Shown here piece after piece: positions 8,325-14,562 of a stretch of DNA of 64,000 bases. A program made the position numbers and the translations under genes. The stretch comes from a bacterium (lineage in GTDB: Bacteria > Sysuimicrobiota > Sysuimicrobiia > Sysuimicrobiales > Segetimicrobiaceae), in assembly GCA_035691305.1 (NCBI GenBank), contig DASSJF010000061.1, forward strand, positions 1,329 through 65,328, given 5' to 3'. The stretch's first letter is position 1; each line of letters begins with the position of its first letter. The notes beneath the pieces are model-generated. The model saw only the letters and a list, made by a program, of their open reading frames with translations. It searched no databases and had not been told where the DNA came from.

Positions 8325-8672
8325 TCAGGCTCGGGGACCGGTGCGATCGGCATTCGCCGCACCGCCACCGGACCCGTCGGATGCGCCGAGCGGACGCATC
8401 GTCAGCTGGATCTCCGCGATTACCCGCTCGCCGGCGCGAGCATTCAGCGCCTCGATCAACGCCGCCCGCTGCATGCCCAGTTCGTAGTAAACCGCAGGAT
8501 GGTCGGTGGCAACGACAAGAGTCTGGCCCCGAACACCGAGCGCGCGGGCATGGCGCGCCTTCGCCGGACCGATCACCACTGGCCAGGCCTCCAGCACGCT
8601 GCCCTGCCGGGCCCGACGCGGCCCGACGAGGCTCGAAAGCGCATCGGACAGCAGTTCCCTAAGCGTGTACAT
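8325..8672 (-). CDS. dciA: DciA (DUF721) replicative-helicase operation/loader protein
   Basis: 'LEAWPVVIGPAKARHARALGVRGQTLVVATDHPAVYYELGMQRAALIEALN' is DUF721-like. Its location between recF and gyrB is syntenic with Mycobacterium Rv0004. The start is taken at the internal Met (8672), which overlaps the recF stop. Confidence 0.75.
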   Translation of the reverse strand: MYTLRELLSDALSSLVGPRRARQGSVLEAWPVVIGPAKARHARALGVRGQTLVVATDHPAVYYELGMQRAALIEALNARAGERVIAEIQLTMRPLGASDGSGGGAANADRTGPRA

Positions 8673-9783
8673 CGGTGCCCGCCTCGATCGCACCACCGCG
8701 GACCATGAACATCCGGAGCGCGACGCCGGCCGCCGGCGGCGGCACCGTATGCGTCAGCAAGACCTGCGGCCCCTCGATCTCCCGCAGCAACATGATCTGG
8801 CGCGCCGGATCAAGGTCGGCGAGTACGTCGTCGAGCAGCAGCACGGGCCAGGTTCCGAGTTCGTCGCGCAAGATCTCCGCCTCGCCGAGCCTGAGACTGA
8901 GCGCGGCCGTGTGCTGCTGGCCTCGAGATCCGAAAGCCCGAAGATCGACGCCGTTCACGCCGATCCGCAGATCGTCGCGATGGGGCCCAACGAGGCTCGT
9001 CCGGCGGCGGTACTCCTCCGCGCGATGCCGGGCCAGCGCGCGCGCCAGCGCGGCGGCCTCACGGCCGTCGCCGGGGCCGGCCGAGACCGGCGCGGGGCCG
9101 CCGGGGTCGTCCGCCGTCGACGAGTAGGTCACGTCCAGCCCTTCGGAACCGTCCGAAACGCGCGCGTGCCGCTTCGCGGCCCGCGCCGCGAGCGCCCGCA
9201 CGAAACCGCGCCGGCGCTCCACCAACGTCGCCCCAAGGGCGACCAGTTGCTCGTCCCACGGCTCGAGCGCCGCACCACCGGCGCCCTCGCCGAGCAGCCG
9301 ATTGCGTTGTCGCACTACCCGGAGATACCGCGTGAGCGCGAAAAAATACGACGGGCTCGCCTGACTGAGCGCGGCATCGAGGAGCCGGCGCCGCGCTCCG
9401 GCCGCACCGCGGATCACGTCGCCGTCAAGCGGCCCCGCCAGCACAATCGCCATCCGACCAAGCAGTTGACCCCGCTGCACGACGACCCCATTGACCTTCA
9501 TGCGCTTCTCGCCCGTCGTACGATCGACGGCGATCTCAAGCACATCCGCCCGCGGATCACGCACCTCGGCCCGTACGTACGCCCGATCCTGGCCGAACCG
9601 CACGAGTTCAACGTCGGCCGAGGCACGAGGGCTCCGGCCGAGCGCCGCGGTGTAAACACTTTCAAGCAAGTTGCTCTTGCCCTGCGCGTTCGCGCCGACC
9701 AACACCGTGATGCCGGCCTCAAACGCGAGGTCCGTCGCCGCGTAGTTGCGAAAGTCCCGAAGCCGCAGCTCAGCGAGCCACAA
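8659..9783 (-). CDS. recF: DNA replication and repair protein RecF
   Basis: 'LRDFRNY' N-terminus and the Walker A 'GANAQGKSNLLESV'. 374 aa. Confidence 0.95.
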   Translation of the reverse strand: MWLAELRLRDFRNYAATDLAFEAGITVLVGANAQGKSNLLESVYTAALGRSPRASADVELVRFGQDRAYVRAEVRDPRADVLEIAVDRTTGEKRMKVNGVVVQRGQLLGRMAIVLAGPLDGDVIRGAAGARRRLLDAALSQASPSYFFALTRYLRVVRQRNRLLGEGAGGAALEPWDEQLVALGATLVERRRGFVRALAARAAKRHARVSDGSEGLDVTYSSTADDPGGPAPVSAGPGDGREAAALARALARHRAEEYRRRTSLVGPHRDDLRIGVNGVDLRAFGSRGQQHTAALSLRLGEAEILRDELGTWPVLLLDDVLADLDPARQIMLLREIEGPQVLLTHTVPPPAAGVALRMFMVRGGAIEAGTDVHA

Positions 9784-9995: not shown

Positions 9996-11105
9996 CTACG
10001 AATAGACCCGAACGGGCGCGAGGACGTAGACATAGTCGGTGTTGTCGGTCGGGTGCAGCGCGCCCGGGCTGAGCGATCCGGTGAGATCGAAGTGGACGTC
10101 CGGCGCATCGATGTTCGTCAACGCGTCCATGAGAAACTTCGCGTTGAACGCAACCGGAATCGCGTCGCCCTCGACACGGACCTCGATGTCCTCCTGCGCC
10201 TTCCCAACATCCGGCGTGTTGGAAGAGATCGTGAGCGTGCCCTCCGCGGCGTTGAGGCGCACCACATTGGCGGAATCCTTCGCCGTGATGCTGGCCCGGC
10301 GCACACCGCGCAGCAGCCGTTCGGTACCGACCGTGATCCGCTGCTTGAACTCTTTTGGGATCACCTGTTCATAATTCGGGAACTGCCCGGCGATCAGTCT
10401 CGACACAAACCGCATACCCGGAAGCGAAAAGATGAGTTGGTTGTCGTGAGACGCCACCGAGACTTCGCCTTCAACCGAGCCGAGTACCCTCACCAGCTCC
10501 GCCATCGTCTTACTCGGCACGATCGCCGTAACTTTACCCCGGCCGGCGCCGCCCATCTTGGCGCGCCGCACCGCCAACCGGCCTCCGTCCGTCGCGACCA
10601 AGTGTCCTTGGTCACCGTCCACAACGAGGTAAACACCGGTCAGGAACGGTCTGGTTTCATCAGTCGATACGGCAAAACTGGTTTGACGAATCATCGTTCG
10701 TAGCAATCCGGCGTCAAATTTAACAACGACATTGCCTTCGCCGGATGGCATCAACGGGAAATCGCTGGCTGGTAGCCCTAAGATCTCAAACCGCACGTTT
10801 TCGGAGGTAATAACCGCTTTGGATTCACCCTCGGCAACCACCATTTCCAAGGGTGCCTCCGGTAGGTTCGTCACTATATCGGTAAGAATCCGTGCCGGAA
10901 GAGTAACGGCACCGCCTTCTTTGACTGTTCCAGAGACGTAGGCCTCAATACCGAGCTCGAGATCCGTAGCGGCGAGCTTCACGCCGTTTTTACTCGTTTC
11001 GACGAGTACGTTGCCGAGAATAGGCATACTAGCCCGTGGCGAGATGGCGCGGCCAACGGTTTGCACCGCTCTCAAAAGATTGTCTTGAGAGCATTTGAGG
11101 TGCAT
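9996..11105 (-). CDS. dnaN: DNA polymerase III beta sliding clamp
   Basis: 369 aa, three-domain beta-clamp. Begins 'MHLKCSQDNLLRAVQTVGRAI'. Confidence 0.95.
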   Translation of the reverse strand: MHLKCSQDNLLRAVQTVGRAISPRASMPILGNVLVETSKNGVKLAATDLELGIEAYVSGTVKEGGAVTLPARILTDIVTNLPEAPLEMVVAEGESKAVITSENVRFEILGLPASDFPLMPSGEGNVVVKFDAGLLRTMIRQTSFAVSTDETRPFLTGVYLVVDGDQGHLVATDGGRLAVRRAKMGGAGRGKVTAIVPSKTMAELVRVLGSVEGEVSVASHDNQLIFSLPGMRFVSRLIAGQFPNYEQVIPKEFKQRITVGTERLLRGVRRASITAKDSANVVRLNAAEGTLTISSNTPDVGKAQEDIEVRVEGDAIPVAFNAKFLMDALTNIDAPDVHFDLTGSLSPGALHPTDNTDYVYVLAPVRVYS

Positions 11106-11319
11106 TACTTACGCCCTCTCATAAGGTTTTCTTATATAAAGATTCGTCGTAATAGTAGTAGAACCTGTGGATTGTGTGAATATCGCCGGAGAGGCGCATC
11201 AGAAGGCGATTTTGCGCTGTGGATAACCAAATGGATGAAATTTCGCGGATGATCGGGGTTATCCCGATTGTCCCCCGATCGGTGTTTTTGACGGACACGC
11301 GCTCCTGATCGTGCACATA
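11106..11319. other. Candidate oriC (dnaA-dnaN intergenic): DnaA boxes plus an AT-rich unwinding element
   Basis: A perfect DnaA box TGTGGATAA (reverse complement of TTATCCACA) is at 11218-11226. Degenerate boxes are at 11166-11174 (TGTGGATTG) and 11259-11267 (TTATCCCGA). An AT-rich stretch at 11123-11160 ('ggttttcttatataaagattcgtcgtaatagtagta') interrupts an otherwise ~70% GC sequence. Confidence 0.6.
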
Positions 11320-12708
11320 CTATCCCCGACTACCCGCCCGTTCGGTCCGGAAGCTTTCCACAAGACTTTGGACACCGGCGTTCAGATGGGTATCTTCGGC
11401 CAGCGCGTGCTTTACACGATCGCAGGCGTGCATGACCGTGGTGTGGTCCCGCCCGCCGAACTCCTCGCCGATACGGGGTAGCGACGCGTCGGTCAGTTCC
11501 CGGCAGAGATACATGGCAACCTGGCGGGGAAAGGCAACACCCTTGGTCCGCCGCTTCGCCTTCATTTCCTCGATGCGAATCCCGAAAAACTCCGCGACGG
11601 CGCGTTGGATCGCCGGAATGGTGACCGGACGTACCCGTGCCTGCGGCAGAAGCTCCTTTAGCACATCGGTCGCGAGATCCACCGAGATCGGCGTCCGCGT
11701 CATTTCGGCGTGGGCGCGCAGCCGGCTGAGCGCTCCCTCGAGCTCGCGGATGTTGGACGAGATCCGCTGGGCGATGTACTGCGCGACCTCGTCGGGCACA
11801 ACGATTTTGTCCTTTTCGGCCTTCTTGCGAAGAATCGCGACGCGGGTCTCGTAATCCGGCGGTTGGATGTCCGCGATGAGGCCCCATTCGAACCGCGAGC
11901 GCAGTCGGTCTTCGAGGGTCGGAATCTCCCTGGGCGCCCGGTCGCTGCTGATGATGAGCTGCCGGCTCGACTCGTGCAGGGTGTTGAAGGTATGGAAGAA
12001 CTCTTCCTGGGTGCGTTCCTTTCCGGCCAGGAACTGGATGTCGTCGATCGCGAGCACGTCGACATTGCGGTACCGGTGGCGGAACTCCACCATTTTGTCG
12101 TCGCGGATCGCGTTGATCAGGTCGTTCGTGAACCGTTCCGAGGAGACGTACATCGCACGCGCTGACGGTGAATGGGTCAGGACGTAGTGCCCGATTGCCT
12201 GAAGCAGGTGGGTCTTACCGAGACCGACGCCGCCGTAGATGAACAAAGGATTGTACGCACGGGCCGGCGCCTCCGCGACGGCCTTGGCCGCGGCGTGGGC
12301 GAAACGGTTACCGGCGCCGACGACGAAGGTGTCGAACGTGTATTTCCCGGCGAGGTGGCGCGCTTCGACAGGGATCCCGGCCGTGGCCGCGTCGATGCGG
12401 GCGACGGACTGTGTCGGCGCGGTGCGGGTGTTTTGTCCGTTCTGGTCGCTCTCCGTGACGATGAAGCGAATGTCCACGCCCCGGGTCAGGACCTCGCGCA
12501 GCGTCTCCGTGATGAGGCCGCGGTAGCGGCCCTCCAGCCATTCCTTCGCGAACGCGCTCGGCACCGAGAATACGAACACGTCCTGCTCGAGCGCGAGCGG
12601 CTGCATGGCTTTGAGAAACGCTTCAAAACTCGGCTTGCTGAGCTGGCTCTCGATCCGGGTAAGGGCTTCCTGCCAGACCTGGCCGGCTGTAATGCTCTGT
12701 ACGTCCAT
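11320..12708 (-). CDS. dnaA: Chromosomal replication initiator DnaA
   Basis: 462 aa. AAA+ Walker A 'GGVGLGKTHLLQAIG', and the C-terminal domain IV 'RQVAMYLCRELTDASLPRIGEEFGGRDHTTVMHA'. Confidence 0.97.
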   Translation of the reverse strand: MDVQSITAGQVWQEALTRIESQLSKPSFEAFLKAMQPLALEQDVFVFSVPSAFAKEWLEGRYRGLITETLREVLTRGVDIRFIVTESDQNGQNTRTAPTQSVARIDAATAGIPVEARHLAGKYTFDTFVVGAGNRFAHAAAKAVAEAPARAYNPLFIYGGVGLGKTHLLQAIGHYVLTHSPSARAMYVSSERFTNDLINAIRDDKMVEFRHRYRNVDVLAIDDIQFLAGKERTQEEFFHTFNTLHESSRQLIISSDRAPREIPTLEDRLRSRFEWGLIADIQPPDYETRVAILRKKAEKDKIVVPDEVAQYIAQRISSNIRELEGALSRLRAHAEMTRTPISVDLATDVLKELLPQARVRPVTIPAIQRAVAEFFGIRIEEMKAKRRTKGVAFPRQVAMYLCRELTDASLPRIGEEFGGRDHTTVMHACDRVKHALAEDTHLNAGVQSLVESFRTERAGSRG

Positions 12709-12750
12709 GTGCTGGGCCCTCCCGTGACGCGTCGATCAGGCGACGTGCGC

Positions 12751-13569
12751 CTACGCCTTGAAGACGGAGCCGAGGAACGCGACGCCCTCCCCGGTGAGCG
12801 TCCGCTTCCCCGGATCGGCGGTGCCGACCGTCAGCAGACGCATCTGCTGCAGCGCGGACAGCTCGCGAAATGCGGTGCTGTGGCTCATCCCGAGTTCTTT
12901 CGCGATCGTGGACGGACCGGCCGCGCCGATCTCGGCGATCAGCAGTAGGATCTTCTTCTGACGGTCGGTGAGGCGCGCGGTGTCCGCCGCGGCGGCGGGT
13001 CGCGCGGCGGGTGTCTGTCGAGGCGCGGCGGGCGCTTCCGCCGCCGGGGCGGCCGGACCGACTTTGAGCGTGACGACCGTGCCGCCGCGCAGGTTCTCGT
13101 CGATCGTGATCGCGCCGCCGAGAAACGCGAGCTGTTCCTTCGCAACCGGCAAGCCGGACCCGACGCCCTTGATGAACCGCCGCATGTCGCGCGTCGCGGT
13201 GGTGAACCCGGGCTCGAACGCGCGATCCCTGGCGTTCTCGGGGATGCCGGGTCCCTGATCCGAGATCCGGATCGTGTTGCCGTCGCCCATGATCGAGACG
13301 ACCGCGTCTTTGAAATAGGCGTGAATGAGGTTCTCCACGATCTCCTTGATCACGACGAAGGGGATGCGCCCGCCGCGCTCTCGCGCGTAACGGTGCGTTC
13401 GCGCAGACAATTCGCCGATCAGCTCGTTAAAGTCCTGAGAAGAAAGGGTGATGATCTGCGGCGGTGCGAGCGGCGAATCGTAGATGGCGACGCGAACCTC
13501 AGGCGCCTGCGCCTGGTCCGACGTTCCGTCTCCTCGTTGAGACACGAGCCGCAGGAAGAAGTCTTCCAT
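12751..13569 (-). CDS. GHKL (HATPase_c) ATPase-domain protein with a C-terminal winged-HTH; no recognisable DHp/His-phosphotransfer domain
   Basis: N-box 'IKEIVENLIHA', G1 'ISDQGPGIPE' and G2 'GVGSGLP' define a Bergerat ATP-binding fold. A Pro/Ala-rich linker leads to 'LTDRQKKILLLIAEIGAAGPSTIAKELGMSHSTAFRELSALQQMRLLT', a MarR/ArsR-like HTH. Start is taken at the internal ATG 13569, which has a GGGGGAG Shine-Dalgarno 8 nt upstream; an alternative start is 13686. Only 42 bp separate its stop from the dnaA start, with no terminator. Confidence 0.6.
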   Translation of the reverse strand: MEDFFLRLVSQRGDGTSDQAQAPEVRVAIYDSPLAPPQIITLSSQDFNELIGELSARTHRYARERGGRIPFVVIKEIVENLIHAYFKDAVVSIMGDGNTIRISDQGPGIPENARDRAFEPGFTTATRDMRRFIKGVGSGLPVAKEQLAFLGGAITIDENLRGGTVVTLKVGPAAPAAEAPAAPRQTPAARPAAAADTARLTDRQKKILLLIAEIGAAGPSTIAKELGMSHSTAFRELSALQQMRLLTVGTADPGKRTLTGEGVAFLGSVFKA

Positions 13570-13686
13570 CGACGCGACTCCCCCGCGTGCGGACACAACA
13601 TTGGCCGCATGCGGGTGCCCTCCTTTTGTTTTCGCACACGCTGTGTACTTTTCGAATATCCCGCTGAAATGCCGTGGTGCGGTCAA

Positions 13687-14060
13687 CTCTGTGGAGAGAT
13701 GATCGCCGTCTTTTCAGCGGTCGCGGGCGGTCCTCGTCGCGCGCGCGGTGTGCAGGCTGTGTACCGAGCGGATAACAGCGGGTGGACCATGTTATCCACA
13801 GGTGTGGAAAAGATTGTGGACAATTTGGACGGACTCCTGCCGGCCTCGGAAAAAGCACCGCAACCCGTTACAAAACCGCACAAAACGACCGAGGTCATGG
13901 CACGGCGTCACGAAAGTGTGGACAACTGGGCACACTGCCCACAGGTTATCGCCAGTTCGGTGAAATCCGGCACGCTTTGTGGTCGGCAGCGGAGTGTCGT
14001 GGACGGTCCGCGGGCCGTTATGCTATAGTCATTTGGTCTCTTGTTAAGGGAGTGTCGTTG
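13687..14060. promoter_or_regulatory. DnaA-box cluster and divergent promoter region (upstream of the GHKL-HTH/dnaA unit and of rpmH)
   Basis: A perfect TTATCCACA is at 13791-13799. One-mismatch boxes are TGTGGAAAA (13802-13810), TGTGGACAA (13814-13822) and TGTGGACAA (13915-13923). Weaker boxes are at 13689-13697 and 13767-13775. A 'TATAGT' -10-like element lies near 14022. Confidence 0.6.
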
Positions 14061-14198
14061 GTGAAGCGTACCTTTCAACCAAACCGCAGGCGCCGCGCCC
14101 GGACGCACGGGTTCCGGGTACGGATGCGCACGCCGGGGGGCCGCAATGTGCTGCGCCGCCGCCGCCAGCGCGGACGGCGCCGTCTCTCACCCGCGTAG
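14061..14198 (+). CDS. rpmH: 50S ribosomal protein L34
   Basis: GTG start. '[41 protein letters not shown]' is the canonical L34. A GGGAG Shine-Dalgarno lies upstream. Confidence 0.9.
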
Positions 14199-14238
14199 CC
14201 GGCCAAGCGCCGCCGGCCCGACGCGGCCGCCCGGCCGC

Positions 14239-14562
14239 TTGGTGTCGCGAGCGGATTTTTCCCGAGTGTACCGCGAGGGGCGCCGCTATGCCGGAGAAAC
14301 GCTGGCGCTGTACGTCCGCTCGACGGACGGCGTGCGCCGGGTCGGTGTGACGGCGGGCCGCGGTCTCGGCGGTGCCGTGATTCGGAACCGAGCAAAGCGT
14401 CGTCTGAGGGAAGCGTACCGGCGGATCGAGGCGCGGCTGTGCGCCACGGGGGATCTTGTGCTGGTCGCGAGGTCCGCGGCGGTCAACGCCGGGTTTGCCG
14501 AGATCATGCGTGAAATGGAAGCGCTTTGCGCTGCGGGGCGGCTGCTGTGCGGCGCGACGTAG
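14239..14562 (+). CDS. rnpA: Ribonuclease P protein component
   Basis: '[27 protein letters not shown]' and the '[13 protein letters not shown]' RNR motif. The start is set at TTG/GTG just after rpmH, because the tracked ORF start overlaps rpmH. Confidence 0.85.

Follow-up and report, generated by a model that had tools for sequence, protein, structure and literature searches.

Introduction

The regulators that act on the replication initiator DnaA differ from lineage to lineage. Those described come mainly from Proteobacteria and Bacillota, and in the majority of phyla no such regulator is known to us. Spo0A, CtrA, MtrA, and AdpA are helix-turn-helix (HTH) proteins that bind oriC. We know of no DnaA or oriC regulator that has a GHKL domain or that is encoded first in the dnaA operon. 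Among GHKL proteins, NifL possesses a kinase-type ATP-binding domain that serves as an ADP/ATP sensor regulating NifA and not as a kinase, and the kinases SpoIIAB/RsbW and mitochondrial PDK/BCKDK share this fold but have no DHp domain. In MutL (E29/N33), GyrB (E42/N46), SpoIIAB, and PDK/BCKDK, which are GHKL enzymes that hydrolyze ATP or phosphorylate hydroxyls, the general base is a Glu located four residues ahead of the Mg-binding Asn. Here, we describe a gene located between rpmH and dnaA in a 64,000-nucleotide stretch of DNA (hereafter, the window) from a bacterium of the Sysuimicrobiota, family Segetimicrobiaceae (assembly GCA_035691305.1, contig DASSJF010000061.1, positions 1,329–65,328). 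Its product is a fusion of a kinase-type ATP-binding domain with an HTH domain in a new, strictly conserved origin context. We propose, giving the assignment an even chance, that this protein may be tethered to DNA and regulate dnaA expression or origin firing in an ATP-dependent manner. The gene is real, conserved, and uncharacterized, and its sequence and surroundings make it a promising candidate for a new initiation regulator.

Conservation of the Gene at the dnaA Locus

The gene adjoins the divergent rnpA/rpmH genes in 81 of 81 loci compared, with dnaA as the next gene wherever the contig reaches downstream and dnaN following in those reaching further; no exception was found. These loci comprise 69 obtained by a scan of GTDB (one genome per species) and 12 places obtained by exact look-ups of six divergent members, in which rnpA, dnaA, dnaN, and recF were placed by tblastn. 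The GTDB scan gave one copy per genome and no second copy. An earlier note on this DNA, made from the letters alone, had allowed that the gene might be absent or located elsewhere in close relatives; its position was kept in every locus. In the window, the gene occupies 12751–13569 on the minus strand and is accompanied by the following features.

11320–12708, minus strand: dnaA, 462 aa, the second gene of the putative operon.
9996–11105, minus strand: dnaN.
12709–12750, minus strand: 42-nt spacer between the stop codon of the gene and the dnaA ATG, containing the dnaA Shine-Dalgarno sequence GGGAGGG.
14060–14197, plus strand: rpmH coding sequence, divergent from the gene, with a promoter-like site TGGACG-18-TGcTATAGT (extended −10) at 14000–14029.

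The coordinates confirm the earlier placement of the gene on the dnaA strand, between dnaA and the rpmH-proximal cluster of DnaA boxes.

The family is large. A word-indexed homologue search gave 1208 matches, the best 120 of which were 58–100% identical to the query, mostly of equal length, and, where named, carried generic labels (“ATP-binding protein”, “CsgD family”, “predicted HTH transcriptional regulator”, and “hypothetical protein”). An exhaustive HMMER search over 1.84 billion representatives (clusters at 50% identity) returned 387 clusters at E ≤ 1e-30, 521 at E ≤ 1e-10, and 3431 at E ≤ 1e-3. These counts indicate that the family is clearly separate from generic kinases. Members were found in Sysuimicrobiota/CSP1-3 (Sysuimicrobium, Fervidifonticultor, Thermofontivivens, Geohabitans, and Tepidifontimicrobium), in “Bacillati bacterium ANGP1”, in metagenome-assembled genomes (MAGs) labeled Bacillota or Armatimonadota, in Actinomycetota MAGs including Ca. 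Aquicultor secundus, and in MAGs of Atopobiaceae and Collinsella. The cultured Olsenella sp. KGMB02461 encodes a 445-aa open reading frame (ORF) with a long Pro/Gln/Gly linker (locus L076, 4743–6080). Two MAGs of low G+C content (L064 and L077) carry the gene at 48–50% identity, in the same position and with a gap of 38–42 nt to dnaA; from these, the family may reach a third lineage.

A high G+C content yields many long spurious ORFs in the window, and one could suppose that the present ORF is one of them, or that it was inserted recently, as a lineage-specific or mobile element carrying a promoter and a terminator of its own. Both were rejected as hardly credible, since hundreds of homologues share invariant motifs and the gene holds the same position in 81 loci. 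There were also no repeats, integrase genes, or compositional break to be seen, and a PADLOC search found no match to the whole protein; the winged HTH alone (residues 193–263) matched CasR/Csa3/CARF-HTH models (E = 5e-6 to 8e-3).

The ORF starts with ATG, encodes 272 aa plus a stop codon, and is identical to NCBI entry HET7265154.1, “ATP-binding protein [bacterium]”. A longer in-frame version from TTG 13686 is also open (311 aa), and the earlier estimate had been a range of 272–311 aa. The lower figure held and the upper one was rejected, because homologues begin at MQDFF and the additional 117 nt contain conserved non-coding blocks, among them a promoter-like element. Among the best 120 of the 1208 homologues, which are 240–287 aa long, nearly all align from the MQDFF N-terminus. 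An out-of-frame ORF of 63 codons starting from ATG 13609 (13607–13609, minus strand) overlaps the start of the gene and is preceded by a strong AAGGAGG 7 nt upstream. It was rejected as a conserved leader peptide and probably is not one, as relatives have 1-nt indels right after the first codons and the frame is not conserved.

Domain Architecture and Relation to Known GHKL Proteins

As far as the sequence tells, the protein consists of two modules on a tether, a kinase-type ATP-binding domain and a small MarR-like winged helix. The segments, all encoded on the minus strand, are as follows.

Codons 1–65 (13375–13569): family-specific N-terminal extension with a short helix, a β-hairpin, and a long helix; no Pfam match.
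Codons 66–172 (13054–13374): HATPase_c domain of the histidine-kinase type.
Codons 173–198 (12976–13053): Pro/Ala-rich disordered linker with a predicted local distance difference test score (pLDDT) of <50.
Codons 199–272 (12754–12975): C-terminal winged HTH of the MarR/Csa3/PhiH1-repressor type.

Pfam located HATPase_c at residues 73–170 (E = 2.5e-15) and an IclR/MarR-type HTH at 200–256, the latter at a sub-threshold or borderline level. The invariant ATPase motifs are E76-x-x-E79-N80 (N box), D104-x-G-P-G108 (G1), an F-box-like segment F-x-P-G-F-T-T, and G135-x-G-x-G139 (G2). The winged helix contains the recognition helix S-x-S-T-A-x-R-E-L and the wing G-K-R-T-L-T. An alignment of 38 sequences from two phyla exhibited invariance at R26, A28, D31, P37, G66, E76, E79, N80, H83, A84, F86, D104, G106, P107, G108, G121, A125, G135, G137, G139, P141, N159, G163, and T167. 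This indicates that the nucleotide-binding site and the N-terminal strand motif R-x-A-x-Y-D are under strong selection. The AlphaFold2 model (30-sequence alignment, mean pLDDT 72.8) was composed of a short helix, a β-hairpin (24–29/38–43), a long helix (44–64), a Bergerat fold (71–170), a disordered segment (175–197, pLDDT <50), and a confidently predicted winged helix (pLDDT 80–94). The domain make-up read earlier from the DNA, namely N, G1, and G2 boxes, a Pro/Ala linker, a C-terminal winged HTH, and no DHp domain, was thereby recovered, whereas its label of a generic Bergerat fold was not retained, as the domain is of the histidine-kinase CA type by both sequence and fold.

The length of the linker varies more than tenfold among the members, from about 25 to >400 residues, with a constant architecture of the end domains. 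In Coriobacteriia and other members (P0325, P0343, and P0378 among them), it grows to 200–>400 residues of Pro/Gln/Gly-rich low-complexity sequence between two conserved end domains. The 10 longest representatives keep this architecture, but the linker, and in some of them an N-terminal extension, has lengthened by as much as several hundred residues. In several Coriobacteriia assemblies (L079, 4001–5205; L080, 4001–5348; L078, 4001–4615), the gene appears as two overlapping ORFs containing the ATPase part and the HTH part, or is truncated. These calls are probably due to frameshift errors in the low-complexity linker and do not represent true split genes.

The closest known counterparts of the ATPase domain are sensor histidine kinases of the “F-x-P-F-F-T-T” type (CckA, ThkA, KinB, and CovS/VicK), which share the HATPase_c domain with N, G1, F, and G2 boxes. 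Structural scores were highest for histidine-kinase CA domains (CovS/VicK, 10.7; CpxA, 9.7; ThkA, 9.6), followed by PDK2/BCKDK (8.6–8.7), DIP2311 (8.0), SpoIIAB (7.6), topoisomerase II (7.1), and MutL (6.6). The family profile similarly matched KinB (E = 5.6e-5), CheA, and BCKDK in the PDB, while SpoIIAB chains were matched only at E = 0.085–0.1. In contrast to the sensor kinases, the present protein lacks a DHp/HisKA domain, a phospho-acceptor His, and a sensor or membrane segment, and it has its own N-terminal β-hairpin and helix together with the fused winged helix. Pfam detected no HisKA/DHp domain even at E ≤ 1, and there was no invariant His before the N box in the 38-sequence alignment. 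A receiver-domain gene, as expected for a response regulator, was not found within 5–6 kb; the neighbors are rpmH/rnpA and dnaA in all loci. At the position four residues ahead of the Mg-binding Asn, the family has an invariant Glu (E76), where the aligned kinases VanS and ThkA have Asn.

The Glu at this position is common to SpoIIAB/RsbW, and a variant of our proposal is that the protein is a DNA-tethered protein kinase that would phosphorylate a partner (e.g., DnaA, DnaN, or DciA) in trans on Ser, Thr, or His, in the manner of the kinases mentioned above that need no DHp. We consider this unlikely. Pfam gave no HATPase_c_2 (PF13581) match at E ≤ 1, the SpoIIAB profile reached only E ~0.09, and many GHKL domains, such as that of NifL, merely bind a nucleotide. 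SpoIIAB/RsbW are also single domains of ~140–160 aa, whereas the present protein has 272 aa with a winged HTH; neither they nor mitochondrial PDK/BCKDK have an HTH. No gene for a STAS anti-anti-sigma factor or a sigma factor was found in the 10–12-kb contexts examined, and the sequence names no substrate. The missing DHp/H box, response regulator, HATPase_c_2 match, and partner genes agree with the earlier statement that the protein is neither a classic histidine kinase nor of the RsbW type.

The best NCBIfam match was the C-terminal GHKL domain of NifL (TIGR02938, E = 1.6e-11), at 43.5 bits against a cutoff of 242. Unlike NifL, the present protein has no PAS domains and no NifA partner, and it carries its own DNA-binding domain.

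Motif I of the GHL ATPases (MutL, GyrB, Hsp90, and MORC), E-x-x-x-N-x-x-D/H-A, is present as K-E-I-V-E-N-L-I-H-A. NCBIfam mutL matched residues 70–120 (E = 4.6e-5, far under its cutoff), and MutL and GyrB gave weak PDB matches over the same stretch; a short-peptide PDB search with motif I returned only chance matches, such as CENP-X. This resemblance, seen across the family as K/R-E-I-V-E-N-L-I-H-A, could point to a factor for origin organization or segregation, which would bridge, compact, or position origin DNA through ATP-driven GHKL dimerization as in MutL and MORC, and the long low-complexity linkers of Coriobacteriia would suit bridging. Such a role is less likely and in our view quite improbable, because the ATPase domain is not followed by the transducer domain (ribosomal S5 domain 2-like) with the catalytic Lys, and because the structural scores against MutL-type enzymes are lower.

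The winged helix shares its fold with the MarR family, at 18.7 bits for MarR and 20.6 bits for MarR_2, which are under the cutoffs of 24.6 and 27. Compared with MarR, it comprises only ~74 residues at the extreme C-terminus and lacks the N- and C-terminal dimerization helices. It has the DNA-reading module alone in common with Csa3/CasR, as there is no CARF domain. Proteins of the COG2865 type (AlbA_2 + HATPase_c_4 + winged HTH; e.g., C. diphtheriae DIP2311, PDB 3lmm) differ in size and domain order and are not linked to dnaA, and the present protein has no AlbA_2 or HATPase_c_4 match in Pfam. Neither sequence nor fold relates it to the known DnaA/oriC regulators YabA, SirA, Soj/ParA, Spo0A, Hda, DiaA, SeqA, HobA, CtrA, MtrA, and AdpA; the likeness to them would be one of function, with the protein as a small accessory factor linked to both DnaA and the origin. 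No curated family of Pfam or NCBIfam covers the protein, and the profile and fold searches suggested earlier placed it in no characterized family. No account of a gene of this kind at the rpmH–dnaA position emerged from a literature search, which fell short of most subscription-journal papers.

Putative Transcription Unit and Bipartite Origin

The gene and dnaA appear to be co-transcribed from a promoter that directly follows the DnaA-box array. The gap between the stop codon of the gene and the dnaA start had a median of 39 nt over 75 loci. For most loci of Actinomycetota, and for a few of Sysuimicrobiota (L022, L029, and L041), it measured 3–15 nt. An apparent 4-nt overlap of the ATGA type with dnaA was observed in L057, and for one candidate start each in L072 and L075. 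No DnaA box was present in this gap in any locus. A consensus scan of the 42-nt gap in the window detected neither a promoter-like nor a terminator-like site; the distance of 42 bp to dnaA and the lack of a terminator given in the earlier note were both confirmed. Its suggestion that this is the first gene of the dnaA transcript gains comparative support from the short gaps, the apparent overlaps, and a conserved promoter-like element upstream. The elements of the upstream region and of the dnaA–dnaN spacer are listed below.

13600–13624, minus strand: bipartite promoter-like element AGGAG-N15-CCAAT, lying between the DnaA boxes and the ATG, 55 nt from the latter.
13655–13698, minus strand: conserved block with a weak DnaA box CTCTCCACA (13690–13698), TTGACC, and GGCAnnTCAGCGG (13661–13673).
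13792–13823: triple DnaA-box array, read on the minus strand as TTGTCCACA-ATC-TTTTCCACA-CC-TGTGGATAA.
13917–13925, minus strand: DnaA box TTGTCCACA of the rpmH-proximal cluster, with degenerate boxes around it.
11106–11319, minus strand: dnaA–dnaN spacer with a Bacillus-type unwinding module, the putative second half of a bipartite origin.
11218–11226, 11166–11183, 11149–11161, and ~11121–11140, in this order on the gene strand of the spacer: a perfect DnaA box, two adjacent boxes, CTA-CTA-CTA-TTA, and an AT-rich segment.

Counted from the start codon, the element AGGAG-N15-CCAAT fell between −48 and −62 in 26 of 64 loci; it occurred anywhere in the scanned region in 29 of 64, against 1.3% in shuffled controls. 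When 11 relatives were aligned, both halves and their spacing were conserved and the spacer sequence was not, and for this reason we read the element as promoter-like. It loosely resembles what we take to be the sigma-H consensus of Bacillus. The spacer is palindromic in some relatives (CCGCATGCGG, GGCATGCC, and GCACCATGGTGC); an alternative reading of the element is an RNA or DNA hairpin. The block at 13655–13698 was also recognized in the alignment of 11 relatives as CTCTCCACA...TGACC...GGCAnGTCAGCGGCA, and it may serve as a second promoter or as an operator, perhaps one bound by the winged helix itself. Its component GGCAnnTCAGCGG occurs exactly once in the 64-kb window, and three matches with 1 mismatch are at the level of chance.

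DnaA boxes were defined as TTATCCACA with ≤1 mismatch. Four of them, at 13792, 13803, 13815, and 13917, lie within 134 bp, whereas the window holds 8 in total against 2.1 expected by chance. The triple array is near-invariant as TTATCCACA-ATC-TTTTCCACA-CC-TGTGGATAA in 11 of 11 aligned relatives despite diverged flanks; two of its boxes face each other across 2 bp. The consensus TTATCCACA was found in 57 of 64 upstream regions (520 nt each), and the most enriched k-mers were all variants of the DnaA box.

The basal unwinding system of the Bacillus subtilis origin is composed of DnaA boxes, DnaA-trios, and an AT-rich element (PMC6669920, PMC10721633). The dnaA–dnaN spacer of the window matches this system by our own comparison, and its CTA/TTA trinucleotide repeats resemble DnaA-trios. 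The same layout is kept in most of the related loci sampled (spacers of L001–L077), including Actinomycetota MAGs. The origin is, on this pattern of motifs, bipartite as in Bacillota, and the gene lies inside it. The two DnaA-box clusters are ~2.6 kb apart with the gene and dnaA in between, close to the previous estimate of about 2.5 kb. Cumulative GC skew exhibited a local minimum at ~10.7–11 kb and a local sign change at ~11–12 kb that follows gene orientation; over the whole window, the skew was too weak to place the origin by itself.

Proposed Function

From its position and its presumed co-expression with dnaA, we infer that the protein may function as a regulator of replication initiation or of the origin. 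In the proposed mechanism, the gene–dnaA unit would be transcribed from the promoter just downstream of the DnaA boxes, so that the protein would be made together with DnaA, in a tied ratio and under DnaA autoregulation. The winged helix would hold the protein to DNA, with the origin/dnaA control region as the most plausible site, and the tethered ATPase domain would act locally and in an ATP-dependent manner. It might read ATP/ADP, as the GHKL domain of NifL does, or it might use ATP hydrolysis to drive switching or pass phosphate on to a partner, for example DnaA; either mode would tune dnaA expression or origin firing. We give roughly equal weight to the nucleotide-sensing and catalytic modes, and the catalytic mode is favored in part by the invariance of E76. 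A bolder version, which we put forward as tentative, is that the protein represents a class of initiation regulator not recognized before, a kinase-like ATPase tethered to the origin and co-produced with DnaA, which would act directly on DnaA (by phosphorylation or ATP-dependent sequestration) or on origin DNA.

Several observations weigh against this proposal. In Olsenella, the gap to dnaA is ~200 nt, which implies a looser coupling, and a further dnaA-specific promoter may lie within the coding sequence of the gene. The structural models are moderate in confidence (mean pLDDT 73–77), and the 10 longest family members contain no DnaA fusion or extra replication-related domain. After the DnaA boxes were masked, only clade-specific blocks and the rpmH promoter/start remained, so that no second motif common to all lineages was found as a candidate operator of the winged helix. 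Taken alone, synteny around oriC says little about function; recF, the S4-like gene, jag, rsmG, and yidC keep their places near dnaA just as well and do not control initiation.

The last two points also bear on an alternative that we regard as doubtful, yet as the main contender. The protein could be an ordinary one-component transcription factor that pairs a GHKL domain, sensing ATP/ADP or a ligand, with a winged helix and acts on targets elsewhere in the genome. Its site in the dnaA operon would then provide origin-proximal dosage and growth-rate- or cell-cycle-coupled expression with no role in initiation. The domain make-up is typical of a small regulator, and the best NCBIfam match, though far under its cutoff, is the nucleotide-sensing GHKL domain of NifL. 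However, the linkage to dnaA is tight over two phyla, with a gap that was never lost or invaded in the loci reaching dnaA, which is tighter than expected of a passenger carried for dosage. The gene is also a single copy in each genome of the GTDB scan and has no other context in the 81 loci.

Neighboring Genes and Minor Features

On the plus strand, the genes from 14060 are ordered as rpmH, rnpA, yidD, yidC, jag, rsmG, and parA. On the minus strand, a DciA-family gene (PF05258, helicase operator; 8325–8696) comes directly after recF and overlaps its end, and it is followed by a RemA-like gene and gyrB. The order recF–DciA–RemA-like–gyrB was kept in all relatives examined (L001, L004, L006, and others). 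The conserved recF–DciA order indicates that the origin region encodes DnaA, DnaN, and DciA together. A search of Rfam over 10900–14300 found no family. A sub-threshold match to AsdA, an antisense RNA of dnaA mRNA, was located within dnaA (12164–12237, plus strand; 23.5 bits against a gathering score of 52, E = 0.09); the conserved coding sequence of dnaA is its most likely cause.

Implications

The comparative basis for this gene is stronger than the earlier note could know. The family provides a candidate initiation regulator for two phyla, in the uncultivated soil and hot-spring Sysuimicrobiota and in Actinomycetota lineages including Coriobacteriia. Its presence in the cultured genera Olsenella and Collinsella of the human gut makes the hypothesis open to direct biochemistry and genetics. 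Even if the protein were an ordinary regulator, its family would merit curation under a name of its own, and the label “ATP-binding protein” should give way to a better annotation. If its ATPase does act on DnaA, initiation control would gain its first GHKL-type enzyme and, with it, a new link between cellular ATP or energy status and origin firing in Sysuimicrobiota and basal Actinomycetota.

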